NCBI GenBank assembly: GCA_030262895.1
Contig: JAJSZW010000001.1
Coordinates: forward strand, 16,360 to 80,359
Source of the DNA: Deltaproteobacteria bacterium
GTDB lineage: Bacteria > Desulfobacterota > Desulfobacteria > Desulfobacterales > ETH-SRB1
DNA length: 64,000 nucleotides
Direction: 5' to 3'
A program made the translations under genes and the position numbers. The notes below the pieces were generated by a model that saw only the letters and a program-made list of their open reading frames with translations, had not been told where the DNA came from and ran no database searches. Shown here piece after piece: positions 3,104-62,259 of the stretch. Numbering within the stretch: position 1 is the stretch's first letter; each line of letters starts with the position of its first letter.

Positions 3104-4039
3104 TTAATTAACCGTTAAGTTGTATTTATTAAGCTTTGAATACAATGTGCTGCGGCTCACATTAAGTTGTTTTGCAACTTTTAATTTGTTCCAGTTGTTC
3201 TCCTGCAAAATTTTCATAAGGAATCTTTTCTCATTTTCCTCAAAAGAGGTTATCCCTTCATTTTTTTCTTTTAACACTTCATGTAAAATGCGGGAAGGCA
3301 GTAACTCACGCTCAACTTTTTCACCCTTTGCCAGTAGGAAAGCGTGTTGTATTGAGTTTTCCAACTCCTTGACATTGCCTGGCCAGGAATAGTCCATTAA
3401 TATCTGCATTGTATCGGATGTAACACCGCTAACATTTTTCCCTATTTCTAGATTCAGTATTTCTAAAAAGCATTCTATTAGAAGGGGGATATCATCTTTC
3501 CTCTGCCTTAAGGAAGGCAGGTGTATATTAATTACATTCAGCATATAAGAAAATTCTTCATTAAAAGTTCCTTTTTCGACCTCTTTCCCAAGATCAGTAT
3601 TAACAGCGGCAATAATCCTGACATCTGTCTTAATCCTTTTTTTTCCTCCAAGCCTTTTTATAGACCCTTCCTGTAAAAAATCCTGAAGTTTGATCTGTGT
3701 CAATGGAGGCATTTTATCAATCTCACTCAAAAACACTGTGCCGCCATTATTCCGCTCCAGACATCCTTTCTTTTGAGATACCGCCCCTTCAAAGGCGCCT
3801 GTTTCATGACCAAAAAGTCCGCTTTCAACTATAAACCTCGGATAAGCTGAGCAGTTATACACATCAAAAGGTTTGTCTTTTCTTGAGCTGTTCAAATGGA
3901 TACATCTTGCCACCAATGCTTTCTCAGTACCCTCTTCACCCTGAACCACAACCGAGGTATCAGTAGGAGCCAGATTCAATATCATATTGTAGATCTGCTG
4001 CATTCTGGCAGACTGTTTATTGATCTCCTGTATCTTCAA
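3104..4039 (-). CDS. Receiver-less sigma-54 enhancer-binding-protein paralog with degenerate ATPase motifs and a C-terminal Fis-type HTH
   Basis: 311 aa, clearly paralogous to the AAA+/HTH part of the 623-aa activator at 12407..14278. Walker A reads GEEGTEKA (canonical GESGTGKE), Walker B reads FLSEI (canonical FLDEI), GAFTGA reads GAFEGA, and YYRLNV reads SYMLNV. The start overlaps the mrpB stop by 4 nt. Confidence 0.8.
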   Translation of the reverse strand: MKIQEINKQSARMQQIYNMILNLAPTDTSVVVQGEEGTEKALVARCIHLNSSRKDKPFDVYNCSAYPRFIVESGLFGHETGAFEGAVSQKKGCLERNNGGTVFLSEIDKMPPLTQIKLQDFLQEGSIKRLGGKKRIKTDVRIIAAVNTDLGKEVEKGTFNEEFSYMLNVINIHLPSLRQRKDDIPLLIECFLEILNLEIGKNVSGVTSDTMQILMDYSWPGNVKELENSIQHAFLLAKGEKVERELLPSRILHEVLKEKNEGITSFEENEKRFLMKILQENNWNKLKVAKQLNVSRSTLYSKLNKYNLTVN

Positions 4040-4530: not shown

Positions 4531-4548
4531 TTCCTAAGTCTTTTTGTT

Positions 4549-5262: not shown

Positions 5263-5287
5263 TCCGTTCCTCTTCTTTCTAAATAGA

Positions 5288-5424
5288 GCCTGAACGAAAA
5301 CTGCTAATTTTTCCAATTTCTGCGCCAGGCTTAAATTTTAATCCTCAAAATACTCAATGTATTCCTGCGGTTAAAATTTGCGCCTTCCTTGAACTTGAAA
5401 AAATTTTCTAGTTTTCGTTCGGGC
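5288..5424 (-). repeat. B-family nested-palindrome element, copy B3 (inverted relative to B1/B2)
   Basis: The reverse complement matches the ~70-nt core of B1/B2 (gttcaaggaaggcg.aaatttta...ggaatacattgagtatt..gagg.ttaaaattt). It has its own terminal inverted repeat, cctgaacgaaaact / agttttcgttcggg. Confidence 0.8.
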
Positions 5425-5487
5425 ACTAAATGTGGCCTTATTTTCCTGCGTTCACACAAAAAATACGTTTTCCGAATTCAAAACGTT

Positions 5488-8043: not shown

Positions 8044-8207
8044 GTAACTACTCAGGTTGATAGGCTGAAGGCTGAAGACTGTTAGGAAAAAGCGCATTTT
8101 GAAGCCATGTTTGGTGCAAGAATCAGATGTTTCCGCTAAAGTACGGCAATCGTGCTCTTCTGACCCCTTCAGCCTTCAGCCTGACTACGTGACTACGTGA
8201 GTAGTTA
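8044..8207 (+). repeat. A-family MITE-like element, copy A1
   Basis: Termini gtaactactcagg...cgtgagtagtta. Arms ggctgaaggctgaag / cttcagccttcagcc. About 90% identical to the reverse complement of 56413..56584. The right end covers the stop codon of the receiver gene. Confidence 0.85.
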
Positions 8208-10290: not shown

Positions 10291-10357
10291 CACAGTTGGC
10301 AGTTAACGGTTTCTCAAAACATAAAACCGTGAACTGTAAACCGACAACCGTGAACTG
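10291..10357. repeat. GTGAACCG-word hairpin element (copy a)
   Basis: cacagttggcagttaacggtt - loop - aaccgtgaactgtaaaccgacaaccgtgaactg. It fills the gap between two kinase genes. The right arm is nearly identical to the one at 38706..38731. Confidence 0.7.
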
Positions 10358-12397
10358 CTATTCTGAAATAGCGGGAAATGTCATTTTAAAGGAAGTCCCC
10401 ACATTTTCTTTACTTTCAACAGTGATCTCTCCCCCATAGTCTTTAACAATCTCATAACTTATAGACAACCCAAGTCCTGTTCCAGCGCCGATTTTTTTGG
10501 TTGTAAGAAATGGTTCAAAGATCTTGTCAATAATATCAGCCGGTATCCCCTTTCCGTTATCTGAAACTATTGCTACAACTTGTTTGTCTTCCGCAAAAGT
10601 CCTGACCTTTATAATTTTTTTCCAGGTTTTTCCTCTTTCCTCCAAAGCATCACGCGCATTAGTAATCAGATTAATAAATACCTGCTCCAGTCTGTTATGA
10701 TCCGCCAGTATTGGAGGAAGATTTTCAGCAAGATCCAACTCTATATCTATCTGATGAAGAATTAATTGCTGATTTAATACCTTGAAGACATCGGCAATCG
10801 GTTTATTGATATTAACCTCGGATCGTGTAGCGTCAGATGGTCTTGCAAATTCTCTCATATGATTGATTATCTCACTCGCCCGGTCAACATACCTGCTCAT
10901 CTCTTCTGCCATGGTACGAAATGTCTCTTTATCTATACTTTCACCTCTGCCTATCATCTTTATAAAAAAATCACTCCCCACCTTAATGACATTGAGCGGC
11001 TGATTCAACTCATGAGCAATGCCGGAAGCCATAGTGCCAAGTGCCGACATCTTGCCGGCCTGAATTAATTGAGCTTCTTTTTCAACGCTTTCAGTAACAT
11101 CAGAAGTCGTTATAATCAGCACATTTTGCTTCATATATTCTGCAGGACGTACATGAATGTTGACATAAAAAAATCCATTATCTTTCCTGCAATGCTGCCT
11201 TTTTAAATAAAGGAGAGTCTTGCCCTTTTTAATTGAAGCAAAATCATCAATTATATCTTTGTATGCTATGTTTGAAAGATCAAAAAAGGACTTTTGCAGA
11301 AATTCTTCTCGTGAATAGCCATAATAGCCTTGAGCTGTCTCATTTACATCCAGGATGGCAAATGTCCCGCCGTCGACAATAAAAATCGGATTCGGATCAG
11401 CATTGAACAGATCCCGGTATTTTTTTTCAGAAATTATCAATTCCATTTCAAATTGATTGAGACTGAAAAGCATGTGTTTAAATGAATCGGCCAGACGCGT
11501 TATTTCATCTCCGGAGTATTTTTTATAAATTTCGCACTTAATACACCCCTCAAGCTTTTCCGGAAACTTTTCTGAATGCTTTGACCGACAGAGAGTATTC
11601 TGCACAAACCAGCACGGCATGTCTGTCCCGCCATATGCAGGACACTCTGTTTTGTTACAATCCGATTCTTCCCAACACTTAATAGTTTTGCCGAATTGGA
11701 TTATGGATTTTCCGTGACTGGCCAGGTTTGCCATGGAGGTAAGCCTGGAAATAGGACGTGTAATATAATGCGAAAGCCACAGAGTCAGAAAAAACCCCGC
11801 AGCTCCAATAAGAATCAGGGTAACTACAATTTCACGGTTTCTAAGCGCTATAATTCTTTTTTCTGTTGGTAACCAGCTAATCCCCACAGACAATACACCC
11901 AGCATATTTTTTTCTGTTCCGTGACACTCATTGCAAGCTTTTTCATTTTTGATGGGCATAGCATAGCTGATAACTTTTTCTTTCCCATAGTATTCAAAGC
12001 CATTAACCAGGCTTTTGCTTTGCAAACTCCTTTTAGTAATTTCAGAATTAATTGAACTGCCGATAAGGTCGGCATTGCCGGCATGCTTTATAATTCCGTT
12101 CCAATCACAAAGAATGATTCTATGTAACTCTTCAGCTTCATTCAAGTCTTCTAATATTTTCTGAACATATTCCATCTCACCGTCGAGCATCGGATATTCA
12201 ATGCTTCGCATAACAATATTGCTGACCTTAAGCGCCCTGCTCTCTTGCTCCACAGTATAAAACTTTATCTGCCTTATTGTCTGGTAATAAGTAAAAAAGC
12301 CCATTACGCTACACAAAATCAGGGAGAACCCCAATATTATTTTATTTCTCAGGTTATTGCGAACAAGATTTGAGATAAAGGCTATTTTAAATGGCAT
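10358..12397 (-). CDS. Sensor histidine kinase with a periplasmic CXXCH (heme c) motif, a cytoplasmic Cys-rich module and PAS
   Basis: 679 aa. Two TM segments bracket a ~160-aa loop containing ACNECHG. After TM2 comes [30 protein letters not shown]...CIKC. Then PAS, H-box [11 protein letters not shown] and ATPase boxes [24 protein letters not shown]. Confidence 0.85.
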
Positions 12398-14278: not shown

Positions 14279-14295
14279 AACAATTCTTTATATTT

Positions 14296-14462
14296 TGAGA
14301 CCGTTGAAAAATGATCAGTTTTGTTACAGTTCAAGGAAGGCGAAAATTTTAAACGTAGTAATACATTGAGTATTTCGAGGCTTAAAATTTGAGCCTGACA
14401 CCGACACTTTAGTGAAGCTTTAGCGCTAATTGGACAAAAGGGGGCGTTTTGCAAAGGTCTCA
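14296..14462 (+). repeat. B-family nested-palindrome element, copy B1
   Basis: Terminal repeat tgagaccgttgaaaa / ttttgcaaaggtctca. About 88% identical to B2 (51076..51217) apart from a ~24-nt insertion. It starts 18 nt from the activator ATG at 14278. Confidence 0.85.
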
Positions 14463-14747
14463 TTTCAGGTTGTGCATCACTTCGATGTAATTCAAAATAG
14501 TTTGCTTTCGAAAATTAGAAATAATTTAAAAATAATAGGACAATATTTAGTGCATTGTCAATATAATAAGTGTTTAAGTGTTTAATTGAGCGCTGATTTT
14601 TGCCTTCTGTTTTGTTTACAAAAAACGGTTATCATGATATAAGTAAAATTTATATGATTTGTGAATCAATTCATAAGTATCTATAAATGTAAAGAATCCA
14701 GGTCAAGAAGACGTTTTTCTCTGACATATAAATATAGGGTGGAAAAA

Positions 14748-16496: not shown

Positions 16497-16740
16497 GTAA
16501 CCGTTCACGGTTACCGGTTATACAGTTCACGGTTCAAAAAGACAAAAAGCAGAAGCGAATTATGGGATCGGCTGCGGAGCTGAGAACACAGATTTATATT
16601 TCACGAGAGGTTAATATATTTTCTGATTTAGATGCGAAAGAATTAATTCAAAAGTTGAAATCAAGATCCAAAATGCTTCAATCGTTGCATAGTTCATTGA
16701 AAAAACTGTGAACTGTGAACCGACAACCGTGAACGGTTAC
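16497..16740. repeat. GTGAACCG-word nested-palindrome element (copy b, long form)
   Basis: Termini gtaaccgttcacggtt...aaccgtgaacggttac (perfect 16-nt inverted repeat). The arms are tandem cacggtt / gtgaac words around a ~170-nt core. Confidence 0.8.
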
Positions 16741-26333: not shown

Positions 26334-26407
26334 GTAACTGTTCAGGTTGCCGGTTCACGGTTTACGGTTCACGGTTGGTTGTATGGAACCGTGAACCGAG
26401 TAATTAC
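26334..26407. repeat. GTGAACCG-word hairpin element (copy c)
   Basis: gtaactgttcaggttgccggttcacggtttacggttcacggtt - loop - aaccgtgaaccgagtaattac. Confidence 0.75.
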
Positions 26408-31598: not shown

Positions 31599-31773
31599 AT
31601 GTTATTTTTCCTTTCACAGGATTTAGATTGTATCAAAAAGCTTGACCTTTTCCTATCTGAATAAAAAAATGATGTCAATAGATCAGATTTTGTAATACAG
31701 GGCAAACGCATTTGGAAATTTTATTCCTTGATTTAAAGCGGAAATATTCTTATATATCAAAAGTTAAAATATC

Positions 31774-31955
31774 ATAACTACTCAGGTTGGTTAGGCTGAA
31801 GACTGAAGACTGAAGACCTTTAGGGAAAAGACTCCCAGAAGCCAATATTTTCTTAAAGCGGCCTGAAATTTTGTCTTAAACTTAGAGAATAACGCTCAGG
31901 AATCATCTGTTTCCTTCAGCCTTATAGCCTTCAGTCTAAACACCTGAGAACTTAC
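31774..31955 (+). repeat. A-family MITE-like element, copy A3 (long variant)
   Basis: ataactactcaggttggttaggctgaagactgaagactgaag ... ccttcagccttatagccttcagtctaaacacctgagaacttac. A4 is its inverted deletion derivative. Confidence 0.85.
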
Positions 31956-31987
31956 ATATACTTTCCACGGCTATAAACTGCGCTTTT

Positions 31988-38647: not shown

Positions 38648-38731
38648 TTCACGGTTTACAGTTAACGGTCTACAGTTAACTGTTGCTCAAAAATATAAAA
38701 CTATTAACTGTAAACCGACAACCGTGAACCG
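38648..38731. repeat. GTGAACCG-word hairpin element (copy e)
   Basis: ttcacggtttacagttaacggtctacagttaactgtt - loop - aactgtaaaccgacaaccgtgaaccg. Confidence 0.75.
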
Positions 38732-38737
38732 CTACAA

Positions 38738-42121: not shown

Positions 42122-42224
42122 TTTTGTGACCGACACTCAGGCCCTTGTAAAATTTATGATGGGCAAAAAGCCAGGTAGGGTGCATTCTATGCACTATCAA
42201 CGGCATATGGTATCATCTATATAA
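42114..42224 (+). pseudogene. Truncated PIN (VapC-like) toxin, only ~19 native codons left
   Basis: MDSFVTDTQALVKFMMGKK resembles a VapC N-terminus with the first catalytic Asp. The reading frame then runs into REP doublet A and stops. Confidence 0.45.
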
Positions 42225-42306
42225 TGATAAAATGTCTTGATGAGCAAAATTGAATGTTTTTTGGTGCGTAAAACACGCCCTGCGGTTTACAAACAATGAT
42301 TGAGCA
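42169..42306 (+). repeat. REP doublet A (two inverted GTAG-hairpin REPs plus spacer)
   Basis: gtagggtgcattctatgcac and, inverted, ggtgcgtaaaacacgccctgc. About 85% identical over ~140 nt to 46189..46329. Lies directly upstream of the RayT remnant. Confidence 0.8.
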
Positions 42307-46188: not shown

Positions 46189-46329
46189 AGCCAGGTAGGG
46201 TGCATTCTATGTACCATCAGCGGCATGCCTATCATCGCATACATGAATGATAAAATATCTTGACGGGCAAAATCGAATGTTTTCTGGTGCGTAAAACGCA
46301 CCCTACGATTTACAAACAATGATTGAGCA
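46189..46329 (+). repeat. REP doublet B
   Basis: gtagggtgcattctatgtacc and, inverted, ggtgcgtaaaacgcaccctac (perfect REP hairpin gggtgcg-tttta-cgcaccc on the minus strand). Direct repeat of 42169..42306. Followed by fic instead of rayT. Confidence 0.8.
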
Positions 46330-50991: not shown

Positions 50992-51075
50992 AGATTCAAA
51001 TATTACTATGGAGGCTTCAGGCAGCAAGTAAAAGGTTGTTCAAAATAAGTTTGAAAGTTGCTGTGAAGCCATAGA

Positions 51076-51217
51076 GAGACCTTTGAAAAATGTTCAATTT
51101 TGTTCAAGTTCAAGGAAGGCGAAAATTTTAAATGTAGGAATACATTGAGTATTTCGAGGCTTAAAATTTGAGACTGACGCTGAAATTGGGCAAAAGGGGG
51201 CGTATTGCAAAGGTTTC
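51076..51217 (+). repeat. B-family nested-palindrome element, copy B2
   Basis: gagacctttgaaaaatg...gttcaaggaaggcgaaaattttaaatgtaggaatacattgagtatttcgaggcttaaaatttgag...cgtattgcaaaggtttc. Ends 14 nt before the dsrM ATG. Confidence 0.85.
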
Positions 51218-51230
51218 GTAGAGCGAGGTA

Positions 51231-52238
51231 ATGTTAATGAATGAAAAGTATTTGTATTCCCTCATGGCAGTTATTGCTCTTTTTCTGGTTGCCTATGCGG
51301 GCGTTGAAGCGATAGGGCTTCAGTGGCTATTCGGGATCATTATTCCCTACCTGGCCTTGATTACATTTATTGTGGGATTTGTGATGCGAGTTAATGACTG
51401 GGCGCGTTCTCCAGTTCCATTTGCTATTCCCACAACATGCGGTCAGCAAGAATCACTTCCATGGATTAAACCCAGTAAGATTGATAATCCATTTTCAACA
51501 GGCGGCGTTATAATAAGGATGGCCCTGGAAATATTGTTATTCCGTTCCTTATTCAGGAATACAACATGCAAAATAAACGAAGGGCCAGTGATTTCTTATG
51601 TATGGGAAAAGTGGCTGTGGTTGTTTTCACTGGCGTTTCACTATTCATTCCTTGTAGTGCTGGTGAGACATCTGCGTTTTTTTCTTGAGCCCGTTCCTGT
51701 GTGTTTTCAAATTCTTGATAAGATTGACGGGTTTCTCCAGATCGGGCTGCCTGGTGTCATGATTTCCGGTGTGGTTCTTCTGGCGGCGGCAATGTTTTTG
51801 CTTCTCAGGAGAATAATAATCTCACAGGTAAGATATTTTTCACTTGCCGCAGACTTTTTTCCCTTATTCCTCATTATCGGTATCGCCGTATCCGGAATTA
51901 TGATGCGATATTTTACAAAGGTAGATATCGTTGGCGTTAAAGAGCTGACAATGGGTCTGGTAACATTTCATCCACACATTCCGGATGGGATTGGTGCCAT
52001 TTTTTATGTTCATGTATTTTTTGTCAGTGTTCTGCTGGCATATTTTCCTTTCAGTAAACTAATGCATTTAGGTGGGGTATTCCTGAGTCCGACGAGAAAT
52101 CTCCGTTGTAACACCAGGGCTCATAGACACATAAATCCTTGGAATCCAAAAGTTAAGGTTCATACATATGCAGAGTATGAAGATGATTTTAGGGAAAAAA
52201 TGATAGAAGCTGGACTCCCAGTGGAAAAGGAGTTATAA
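51231..52238 (+). CDS. dsrM: DsrM, membrane diheme cytochrome b (NarI-like) of the DsrMKJOP complex
   Basis: 335 aa, multi-TM, NarI/HdrE-like. First gene of a dsrMKJOP-ordered operon. Confidence 0.85.
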   Translation: MLMNEKYLYSLMAVIALFLVAYAGVEAIGLQWLFGIIIPYLALITFIVGFVMRVNDWARSPVPFAIPTTCGQQESLPWIKPSKIDNPFSTGGVIIRMALEILLFRSLFRNTTCKINEGPVISYVWEKWLWLFSLAFHYSFLVVLVRHLRFFLEPVPVCFQILDKIDGFLQIGLPGVMISGVVLLAAAMFLLLRRIIISQVRYFSLAADFFPLFLIIGIAVSGIMMRYFTKVDIVGVKELTMGLVTFHPHIPDGIGAIFYVHVFFVSVLLAYFPFSKLMHLGGVFLSPTRNLRCNTRAHRHINPWNPKVKVHTYAEYEDDFREKMIEAGLPVEKEL

Positions 52239-56412: not shown

Positions 56413-56584
56413 GTGACTACTCACGTAGTCAGGCTGAAGCTGTTTAGGCTGAAGGCTGAAGGGGTCAAAAAAGCACGATTGCAGTACTTTGGCGGAAATA
56501 TCTGATTCTTGCACCAAACATGGCTTCAAAATGCGCTTTTCCCTAACAGTCTTCAGCCTTCAGCCTATCCACCTGAGTAGTTAC
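56413..56584 (-). repeat. A-family MITE-like element, copy A2 (inverted)
   Basis: gtgactactcacgtagtcaggctgaag...cttcagccttcagcctatccacctgagtagttac. Its reverse complement aligns with A1 at ~90% identity, with one indel near one end. Lies between convergent dsrP and fdhD. Confidence 0.85.
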
Positions 56585-57935: not shown

Positions 57936-57942
57936 TTTTATT

Positions 57943-58059
57943 GTAACTACTCAGGCGTTTAGACTGAAGGTTATAGGCTGAAGGAAACAGATGATTCCTG
58001 AGTGTTATTCTCTTTCCTAAAAGTCTTCAGTCTTCAGCCTAACCAACCTGAGTAGTTAC
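57943..58059 (-). repeat. A-family MITE-like element, copy A4 (short, inverted) between rplU and rpmA
   Basis: gtaactactcaggcgtttagactgaagg...cttcagtcttcagcctaaccaacctgagtagttac. Its reverse complement equals A3 minus a ~60-nt internal segment. Confidence 0.85.
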
Positions 58060-58088
58060 GTTTTATTTTATATTAAGGAGTTGTAGTA

Positions 58089-58385
58089 ATGGCACACAAA
58101 AAAGCAGGCGGCAGTTCGAGGAATGGTCGGGACAGTAATGCGCAGAGGCGCGGTGTAAAACGATTTGGCGGAGAAAATGTGAGGGCCGGCAATATATTGG
58201 TTCGCCAGTTGGGCACTAAAATACATCCAGGAGAGAATGTTGGGTTAGGAAAAGATTATACCCTGTTTGCTAAAATAGATGGTATTGTTGCTTATGAGCG
58301 AATGGGACGTTCTCGTAAAAAGGTAAGTGTTTATACCTCGGAAGGCCACAACTTGCGATCTTTCGCCGGCACTGAACACCAATAG
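58089..58385 (+). CDS. rpmA: 50S ribosomal protein L27 (C-terminal ~17 codons supplied by repeat D2)
   Basis: [16 protein letters not shown]... L27 similarity ends near KKVSVY. The tail [16 protein letters not shown] is read from the inserted element. Confidence 0.9.
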
Positions 58386-58492
58386 CTGCGTTGCTCAGGC
58401 TTGAAATAGCTTGTTATTCCGCACCTTCGCGCCTTGCTCTTGATGCTCATTGCTCACCGAAAAAAACGCAATTTATGGCCTTCCGAGGTATA
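58332..58492 (-). repeat. D-family nested-palindrome element, copy D2
   Basis: 17-nt perfect terminal inverted repeat tatacctcggaaggcca / tggccttccgaggtata. The reverse complement of the core (gcaaggcgcgaaggtgcggaataacaagctatttcaagcctgagcaacgcagc) is related to the D1 core. Confidence 0.8.
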
Positions 58493-62203: not shown

Positions 62204-62233
62204 AAAACCGTAAACCGTGAACTGTAAACCGTT
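62204..62233. repeat. GTGAACCG-word fragment (copy g) after proA
   Basis: aaaaccgtaaaccgtgaactgtaaaccgtt. One arm only. Confidence 0.55.
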
Positions 62234-62259
62234 ATTATTTATCATGAAAGGTCTATTTT

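Follow-up and report, generated by a model that had tools for sequence, protein, structure and literature searches.

We analyzed a 64-kb window of a Desulfobacterales genome labeled Deltaproteobacteria bacterium (assembly GCA_030262895.1, contig JAJSZW010000001.1, positions 16,360 to 80,359 of the forward strand; "the window" is this whole stretch of 64,000 nt), which carries three copies of a short repeat, here called the B elements, beside genes of energy metabolism. B2 occupies the spacer between dsrT and dsrM, with an RsbRD_N (DsrT-like) gene upstream and genes for a NarI-like DsrM and for DsrK (Fer4 and CCG domains) downstream. B3 occupies the usp-mnhE spacer, with genes for MnhE (MNHE) and MnhB downstream, and B1 lies between a sigma-54 response regulator gene (Sigma54_activat) on one side and ETF-QO on the other. 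These Pfam assignments confirm the gene identities proposed in an initial annotation of the window, and the distances given there also hold: the end of B2 is 14 nt from the first ATG of dsrM (51231), B1 is separated from the divergent start of the response regulator by 18 nt and from the ETF-QO ATG (14748) by 286 nt, and the gap between B3 and the mnhE ATG (5262) is 24 to 26 nt, according to which boundary is chosen. The dsrM start is probably better placed at the ATG at 51237, with a GAGG Shine-Dalgarno sequence at 51225-51228. The same annotation had all three copies in one orientation relative to their genes, which is true of B2 and B3, both sense; for B1 it holds only with respect to ETF-QO, the more distant gene, and B1 is antisense to the nearest one, the regulator gene at 18 nt.

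A three-way alignment of the copies shows an almost invariant core of about 70 nt between outer arms that differ in sequence yet still pair, as first described (GAGACCKTTGAAAAATG ... CGTTTTGCAAAGGTCTC in B1 and B2 versus GTGCCCGAACGAAAACTAG ... CAGTTTTCGTTCAGGCTC in B3). Each of two core patterns has exactly three matches in the window, where shuffled sequence gives an expectation of 0, and a covariance model finds the copies at essentially the coordinates originally assigned: B2 at 51076-51217 (+ strand, 157 bits), B3 at 5285-5426 (- strand, 145 bits), and B1 at 14297-14435 (+ strand, 104 bits). The window holds no further strong match to the model and a single weak one, at 58355-58469.

Copy boundaries were refined from the terminal inverted repeats (TIRs), which are 17 to 20 bp long; B1 and B2 each have GAGACCKTTGMAAAAYG at their two ends, where B3 has GTGYCYGAACGAAAACT. 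B2 (51076-51217, + strand) is 142 bp long and runs from a left TIR, GAGACCTTTGAAAAATG (51076-51092, + strand), to a right TIR that reads GAAACCTTTGCAATACG on the - strand (51201-51217); these GAGACC...GGTYTC termini define class T1 and recur in 61 copies elsewhere. It is flanked by ATAGA (51071-51075) on the left and by GTAGA (51218-51222) on the right, identical at 4/5 positions, the right copy lying 2 nt 5′ of the dsrM Shine-Dalgarno sequence. Its apical hairpin, GGAATAC-ATTGA-GTATTTC (51137-51155, + strand), has conserved unpaired motifs on either side, ...AA(A/C)(Y)GYAGG and YGAGG(A/C)TT. B1 (14297-14461, + strand) is a T1 element of 165 bp, made up of the 142-bp element and a nested 23-nt module, CACTTTAGTGAAGCTTTAGCGCT (14405-14427, + strand), that is found in neither B2 nor B3; its flanking repeats are ATTTT (14292-14296) and ATTTC (14462-14466). 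B3 (5286-5426, - strand) is 141 bp long and has the termini of class T2 (GTGCCCGAACG...CGTTCAGGCTC), with a 6-bp flanking repeat that reads TAAATA (5280-5285) and TAAATG (5427-5432) on the + strand, corresponding to CATTTA/TATTTA.

The family extends far beyond this window. Species-representative genomes were scanned with the exact 21-nt apical core, which was found in at least 119 stretches (L001 to L119) from at least 73 assemblies, nearly all of them metagenome-assembled genomes (MAGs) labeled Desulfobacterales, Desulfobacteraceae, or "Deltaproteobacteria" and derived from marine sediment, seep, and vent samples. At least 129 copies could be aligned across these loci, all with a single homologous interior and with TIRs like those of the window copies, and a covariance model built from 76 copies recovered about 20 additional, more diverged copies within the same loci. 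The termini fall into several classes (T1, GAGACC...; T2, GTGCCCGAACG...; T3, GAGCCACTTTC...; T4, GTGTCCATCC...; T5, GGAGGCTGTC...; T6, GAAGCTAACCC...) that by eye have the pattern G-W-G-N-C-...-AAA-... in common. The collection of copies with an exact 21-mer inflates the apparent conservation of the core. The canonical length of 142 bp is found in 35 of the 61 T1 copies, and nested inserts produce variants of 141 to 246 bp; the elements are AT-rich (37 to 40% G+C) and are not clustered. There is no conserved open reading frame (ORF): a 13-codon ORF of T1 is missing from T2 by eye, and both it and a TTG-initiated frame after GAGG were rejected as coding, neither being kept between classes. A scan of viral contigs for the 21-mer core returned no matches, so there is no sign of phage carriage. 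Canonical T1-type and T3-like copies also occur on two short contigs binned as archaeal (L017, a Ca. Iainarchaeum MAG, and L050, a Methanosarcinales MAG), for which binning contamination from co-occurring Desulfobacterales is the likeliest explanation.

Copies of the family carry target-site duplications. Among the 61 T1 copies with both ends, 35 are flanked by perfect 5-bp direct repeats and 19 by repeats matching at 4/5 positions, while only 1.1% of shuffled flank pairings are perfect. The duplicated sequence differs between copies, in the three window elements and in the wider set, where the 35 perfect duplications comprise 33 different 5-mers. Across L001 to L119, duplication length follows the class of terminus: 5 bp for T1 (GAGACC-type), 6 bp and mostly TAnnTA for T2 and T4 (GTGYCC-type), and about 4 bp for T3 (GAGCCAC-type), which argues that different cognate transposases have acted on one homologous interior. 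Mini-elements of 36 to 37 bp that consist of the TIRs only are still bordered by direct duplications (L058, 6834-6869, GACCA; L008, 1256-1292, TATGGTA); either mobility requires no more than the termini or the interior was lost after insertion.

The decisive line of evidence is the existence of empty sites. A metagenome scan for relatives of the window DsrM gave contigs L120 to L129, with 86 to 97% protein identity. In L120, L122 to L125, and L127 to L129 the spacer reads ...GTGAAGCCATAGAGCGAGGTAATG..., which is the window sequence minus B2 and one ATAGA; a single ATAGA lies between GAAGCC and GCGAGG in L120, L122 to L124, and L127 to L129. The dsrT-dsrM spacer of these B2-less relatives is intact, at about 50 to 75 nt. 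Within this set B2 is present at the identical site only in L126 (91% DsrM identity) and is missing from the closest relatives (94 to 97%), a pattern that could reflect a polymorphism predating the strain split, recombination, or repeated insertion at one site. Likewise, two contigs with 100% identical MnhB (L200 and L201) read ...AAGGCCACATTTAGAAAGAAGAGG..., which is the window minus B3 and one CATTTA, with a single CATTTA left on the - strand. Because close relatives have empty sites at both positions, B2 and B3 are recent, strain-variable insertions, and the operons function without them. We conclude that the B elements are very probably copies of a small, nonautonomous MITE (miniature inverted-repeat transposable element) of marine sulfate reducers and that their position before three energy operons is a coincidence of insertion. 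The initial annotation had allowed for a mobile element as its second possibility, and on this point it was right.

Its first possibility was a conserved cis-regulatory 5′ leader, such as a riboswitch-like element or attenuator, that would coordinate the dsrMKJOP, mrp, and ETF-QO operons. The window by itself invites this idea, since each of the three copies precedes such an operon, B2 and B3 are both sense and end a few nucleotides 5′ of a ribosome-binding site, and the structure described below is strong, covarying, and strand-biased. The empty sites and the target-site duplications that mark the copies as insertions both speak against it, as does the context of the copies elsewhere. By crude ORF calls, on which all of the following context counts rest, copies are dispersed (three in the 64-kb window) and mostly intergenic, only 6/129 lying inside ORFs (about 95% outside). 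The 85 copies with an ORF on both sides comprise 37 sense, 18 antisense, 17 convergent, and 13 divergent placements; sense exceeds antisense in the 55 tandem contexts (binomial P = 0.014), but 18 of these 55 are antisense, and the 17 copies between convergent genes are in positions where no 5′ leader is possible. In tblastn searches with the window DsrM, DsrK, MnhE, MnhB, and ETF-QO against all 119 loci, no homologue adjoined any of the about 126 other copies, the sole DsrK match being a paralogue at 26% identity. Nor did 20 sampled co-oriented genes downstream of other copies show the functional enrichment that had been suggested as a check: they are functionally unrelated and without a theme, and include a helicase, IMPDH, CobS, PSP1, a dienelactone hydrolase, an ABC transporter, an O-antigen ligase, BioB, an aldolase, an amino acid permease, and GpsA, along with two ETF-alpha proteins and one Fe-S protein. 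The family thus has no conserved sense position upstream of orthologous genes, and it has no counterpart among curated RNA families: Rfam 15 gave nothing at gathering thresholds across the whole window, and B2 at E ≤ 10 drew only chance-level matches, the best being subthreshold ones to microRNA models. On this evidence a shared leader for the energy operons is highly improbable and, as a general account of the family, refuted.

A preference for promoter-proximal insertion, which the initial annotation had attached to the mobile-element alternative, did not hold up either. Copies mostly occupy short intergenic spacers, with ends near stop codons at least as often as near start codons. When the right end lies beside an antisense gene (n = 27), it falls within 3 nt of that gene's stop in 11 cases, and some stops (TGA or TAG) are completed by the first bases of the element, GA after T or G after TA. 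This adjacency to stop codons probably follows from very short spacers or from a preference for AT-rich targets. Sigma-54 activator genes adjoin copies in 5 other loci, as one does B1; we rejected a link with the family, since by a rough estimate this is near the chance rate for activator-rich genomes.

The copies might also be read as a multicopy family of independent small RNA genes with their own promoters, given that the structure is stable, conserved, and strand-specific and that the family is widespread. No sigma-70-type promoter and no intrinsic terminator were found in B2 or its surroundings, and copies fill intercistronic spacers only a few nucleotides from stops and starts; together with the duplications and empty sites that mark insertion, this makes small RNA genes very unlikely indeed. 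A candidate sigma-54 promoter (GG-N10-GC) in the right arm was inspected by eye and rejected, its spacing being wrong in all three window copies.

Each whole element, and not just the core, folds as one long imperfect rod hairpin, so the partial self-folding of the core noticed in the initial annotation is real and extends from end to end. Predicted folding energies for B2, B1, and B3 are -47.2, -46.3, and -51.0 kcal/mol (z scores of -6.5, -3.1, and -8.0 relative to shuffles). With 76 copies aligned by MAFFT blind to structure, pairing is seen in 89% of the cells of the full rod, compensatory changes occur in 32/52 pairs, and the covariation score is 0.264, versus at most 0.113 when partners are slid by 1 to 3 columns. 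The apical stem is invariant by construction in the set scanned with the 21-mer, and it covaries in the diverged copies found without it (AATAC/GTATT, CATAT/ATATT, CATAGC/GCTAT, and AATAG/CTATT), while CAAGG, ACCGCAGG, YGAGGAUU, and AACGC, the unpaired motifs, are retained there. Within T1 alone we counted 18 rare double compensatory changes, where by a rough estimate fewer than one would be expected from independent mutation.

The fold is also strand-specific. Mean RNA folding energy is -50.5 kcal/mol for the + strand and -38.3 kcal/mol for the - strand, with 107 of 117 copies favoring +; there are 454 G·U cells to 110 A·C cells, a bias that lies in the inner stems, with none in the 12 outermost pairs, presumed to be the transposase-binding termini; and the covariance model gives B2 a score of 157 bits on one strand versus 51 bits on the opposite one. 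Compensatory changes, strand preference, and unpaired motifs common to classes with different termini suggest selection on a single-stranded hairpin, probably RNA. Two candidate binding sites within the hairpin were rejected: an IHF-like site in the apical loop (AATACATTGAGT compared by eye with YAANNNNTTGATW), because diverged copies alter the loop and keep the hairpin, and CsrA-type GGA motifs, because by eye GGA is not kept and T3, T4, and diverged copies have GGC instead.

A hairpin that is folded on one strand could instead be the DNA substrate of a RAYT (HUH) transposase, as for REP/BIME-type or REPIN palindromes, or of an IS200/IS605-derived system. The imperfect palindromy of the whole element and the covariation of its stems look as if a folded single strand were recognized, and the strand bias fits recognition of that kind. 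Direct duplications of 4 to 6 bp and a single target copy in empty sites, however, are not products of HUH-type mobilization; REP-type repeats lack duplications and are short, GC-rich palindromes of 20 to 40 nt, often clustered, whereas B elements are AT-rich, 142 bp long, and unclustered. We therefore give such an origin next to no probability.

Greater, though still low, weight goes to the idea that the conserved interior is a functional RNA module (CAAGG / ACCGCAGG-hairpin-YGAGGAUU / AACGC), either a protein-binding site or an RNase-processing signal. Several classes of transposon would have spread the module into many operons, and the host would keep the copies for its effect, a scenario that we regard as unlikely. 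One homologous interior is combined with at least five kinds of terminus and three duplication lengths; the unpaired motifs persist while the stems, including the apical stem, covary; the strand bias is limited to the inner stems; tandem contexts show a 2:1 sense excess (P = 0.014, as above); and the TIR-only mini-elements with duplications imply that termini may suffice for mobility, the interior being cargo. Against this, no purifying selection after insertion is visible on the unpaired motifs within T1, the insertions at dsrM and mnhE are strain-variable and dispensable, the conservation of the core is inflated by the way copies were collected, and the distant relatives L043, L082, L155, and L194 are without the motifs. 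In its fullest form the proposal is of a mobile RNA module, preserved through selection on one strand, in transposon shells of at least four terminus and duplication classes, seeded into hundreds of operons of marine sulfate reducers and recruiting a common RNA-binding protein or RNase; this, too, is an outside possibility.

Several points count against the MITE interpretation as we have drawn it. No autonomous partner, that is, a transposase gene between the same termini, was found in the window and about 1.1 Mb of loci, and a search of the same sequence for a parent insertion sequence (IS), covering solo termini, termini paired 0.6 to 3.5 kb apart, and ORFs beside solo termini, yielded nothing beyond remnants and ordinary genes. 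For B1 no empty site turned up; the only contigs found are from the same strain and the same sample (SRR12398184), and both of them (L205, 1-92, and L206, 1-111) are broken inside the repeat. Most MITE families have termini more conserved than the interior; here, across classes, the interior equals or exceeds the termini in conservation, which is partly an effect of collection with the 21-mer. Within T1, rare variants per column are as frequent at unpaired conserved positions (0.97) as at paired ones (1.02), and the excess of G·U over A·C is 26 to 13 (P = 0.053). All copies being homologous, the strand bias and much of the covariation could have been inherited from a few master copies, and gene conversion between the arms of the palindrome could mimic covariation.

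With a MITE as the preferred reading, the elements would move by cut and paste, using a transposase supplied in trans. The duplications and empty sites show insertion with staggered cuts at the target; repair of these cuts would produce the short direct duplications, 5 bp long in the GAGACC class (B1 and B2) and 6 bp long in the GTGYCC class (B3). The classes may be mobilized by DDE-type transposases of one IS family, whose partners would have diverged enough to generate duplications of 4, 5, and 6 bp. B2 and B3 have entered short spacers just 5′ of the dsrM and mnhE ribosome-binding sites, and B1 a divergent promoter region. Most likely the copies are transcribed passively within host mRNAs, because they sit in transcription units and carry no promoter- or terminator-like signal. 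Selection appears to favor a fold of the interior on one strand, a stable rod hairpin in which a few unpaired motifs are conserved; in the mRNA this hairpin may simply be tolerated, the insertion being harmless, or may act as an RNase-processing or stability element by analogy with ERIC and Correia elements.

Smaller units are nested within the elements. A 23- to 24-nt module (AGCGCTAAAGCTTCACTNNGTGC or its reverse complement) interrupts many copies of the family (L016, L031, L067 at 1511-1675, L072, L087, L102, L107, and B1 in the window), at two or more different internal positions, in both orientations, and at times twice within a single copy, and resembles a tiny insertion unit itself. Other short, GC-rich hairpins are inserted at fixed internal sites (e.g., CCCCAGTACGATCTGCCGGACCTACGGGGCAGGC, CCCGCCAAAGTTCGGTGGCGGG, and TCCCGCCAATGGCGGGA), giving mosaic copies of 180 to 246 bp (L027, 4126-4349; L095, 7503-7713; L109; L111; L047, 329-525; and L049). 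The window also contains a possible fourth, highly diverged relative at 58332-58492 (- strand), antisense and between rplU/rpmA and obg (23.9 bits with the covariance model, E of about 1e-3). It has the same rod architecture and the motifs CAAG.GCAAGGCG ... GGAATA-loop-TATTTC ... AACGCAG.TATTGG, with termini that differ from those of the B copies (TATACCTCGGAAGGCCA) and a fold of -88.7 kcal/mol (z = -8.9).

Apart from the B family, the window has further repeats. A second, unrelated MITE-like family, presumably the "A family" of the initial annotation, is present at 8044-8182, 56446-56584, 31766-31956, and 57942-58067, with termini GTAACTACTCAGGTTG.TAGGCTGAAG(G/A)CTGAAGACT; two of its four copies are 95% identical and in inverted orientation. 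Two direct repeats of about 140 nt (42169-42306 and 46189-46329; 89 to 92% identity, 4 kb apart), each just 5′ of a + strand ORF (42441 and 46365), may represent a duplicated promoter or leader region. Short repeats of AACCGTGAACTGTAAACCG-like units are found at gene ends in both orientations (10316-10360, 16695-16739, 26345-26376, 38651-38734, and 62204-62248). In the mrp/mnh operon downstream of B3, a sigma-54 activator gene without a receiver domain (AAA+ and HTH only; 3104-4039, - strand) is embedded between mnhB and mrpF, an arrangement kept in 5/5 related contigs (L200 to L204). The mnhE-mnhB spacer of the same operon holds about 3.5 tandem copies of a 37-nt unit, GGGACACAATGCATAGTGCCCCTACGTGTCAGGAA, in L200 (1666-1800), L201, and L203 and is just 18 nt long in the window (4531-4548) and in L202.

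With these results, the attractive but mistaken idea that dsrMKJOP, mrp, and ETF-QO share a leader RNA in sulfate reducers can be set aside. They also bear on genome reconstruction and strain variation: B repeats break short-read and metagenome assemblies, as in the two contigs that end inside B1, and they create strain-level differences directly before core energy genes, which could serve as strain markers. Should the strand-specific structure act on mRNA, the dsrM and mnhE sites, with their filled and empty alleles, would constitute a natural experiment on expression of the central sulfate respiration complex. If the module idea were true, lineages with filled sites (dsrTMKJOP here) would gain a common posttranscriptional input.

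The B family agrees in every item with a working definition of prokaryotic MITEs: length of 50 to 800 bp, TIRs of at least 10 to 15 bp, target-site duplications of 2 to 10 bp, no transposase, and about 90% intergenic location (Nucleic Acids Res 2024, PMC11602168). The MITE census on RefSeq genomes in that study makes no mention of the B family, its sole "Desulfo" entry being phage MITEs of Desulfobaccales (PMC11602168); the B family is known here solely from MAGs. In the literature on MITEs and repeats in Desulfobacter-type bacteria we found no description of the B family either. It is apparently undescribed and very widespread in uncultivated marine Desulfobacterales, though of a known kind, the prokaryotic MITE.

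Two well-studied families offer the closest parallels, which we draw from architecture as described in a review; no sequence relationship to ERIC was seen, in a comparison made without formal consensus alignment. Correia elements (CREE/NEMIS) of Neisseria are MITEs of about 100 to 155 bp with TIRs, often near gene starts and cotranscribed, whose transcript hairpin is cut by RNase III at the paired termini and which can modulate operons such as mtrCDE (PMC10969869). B2 and B3 resemble them in being sense and a few nucleotides upstream of ribosome-binding sites. For Correia elements the duplicated target is TA, an IHF site is present, and sigma-70 promoters can be created; B2 has no promoter-like site, and the IHF-like match in its loop is not conserved. 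Correia elements are limited to one genus, whereas the B family is present in at least 73 species-level assemblies. ERIC, from Enterobacteriaceae and Vibrionaceae, is an imperfect palindrome of about 127 bp that forms a long hairpin, lies between genes within transcription units, occurs in many species at very different copy numbers, and has size variants produced by sequence inserted at fixed internal sites; an effect on transcript stability at the RNA level, via an exposed RNase E site, has been reported (PMC10969869). The B family differs from ERIC in belonging to another phylum, in its variable target duplications of 4 to 6 bp, and in its several distinct terminus classes. It is nonetheless to ERIC that it comes closest in behavior, sharing its size, rod hairpin, intercistronic location, multispecies spread, and nested internal inserts.

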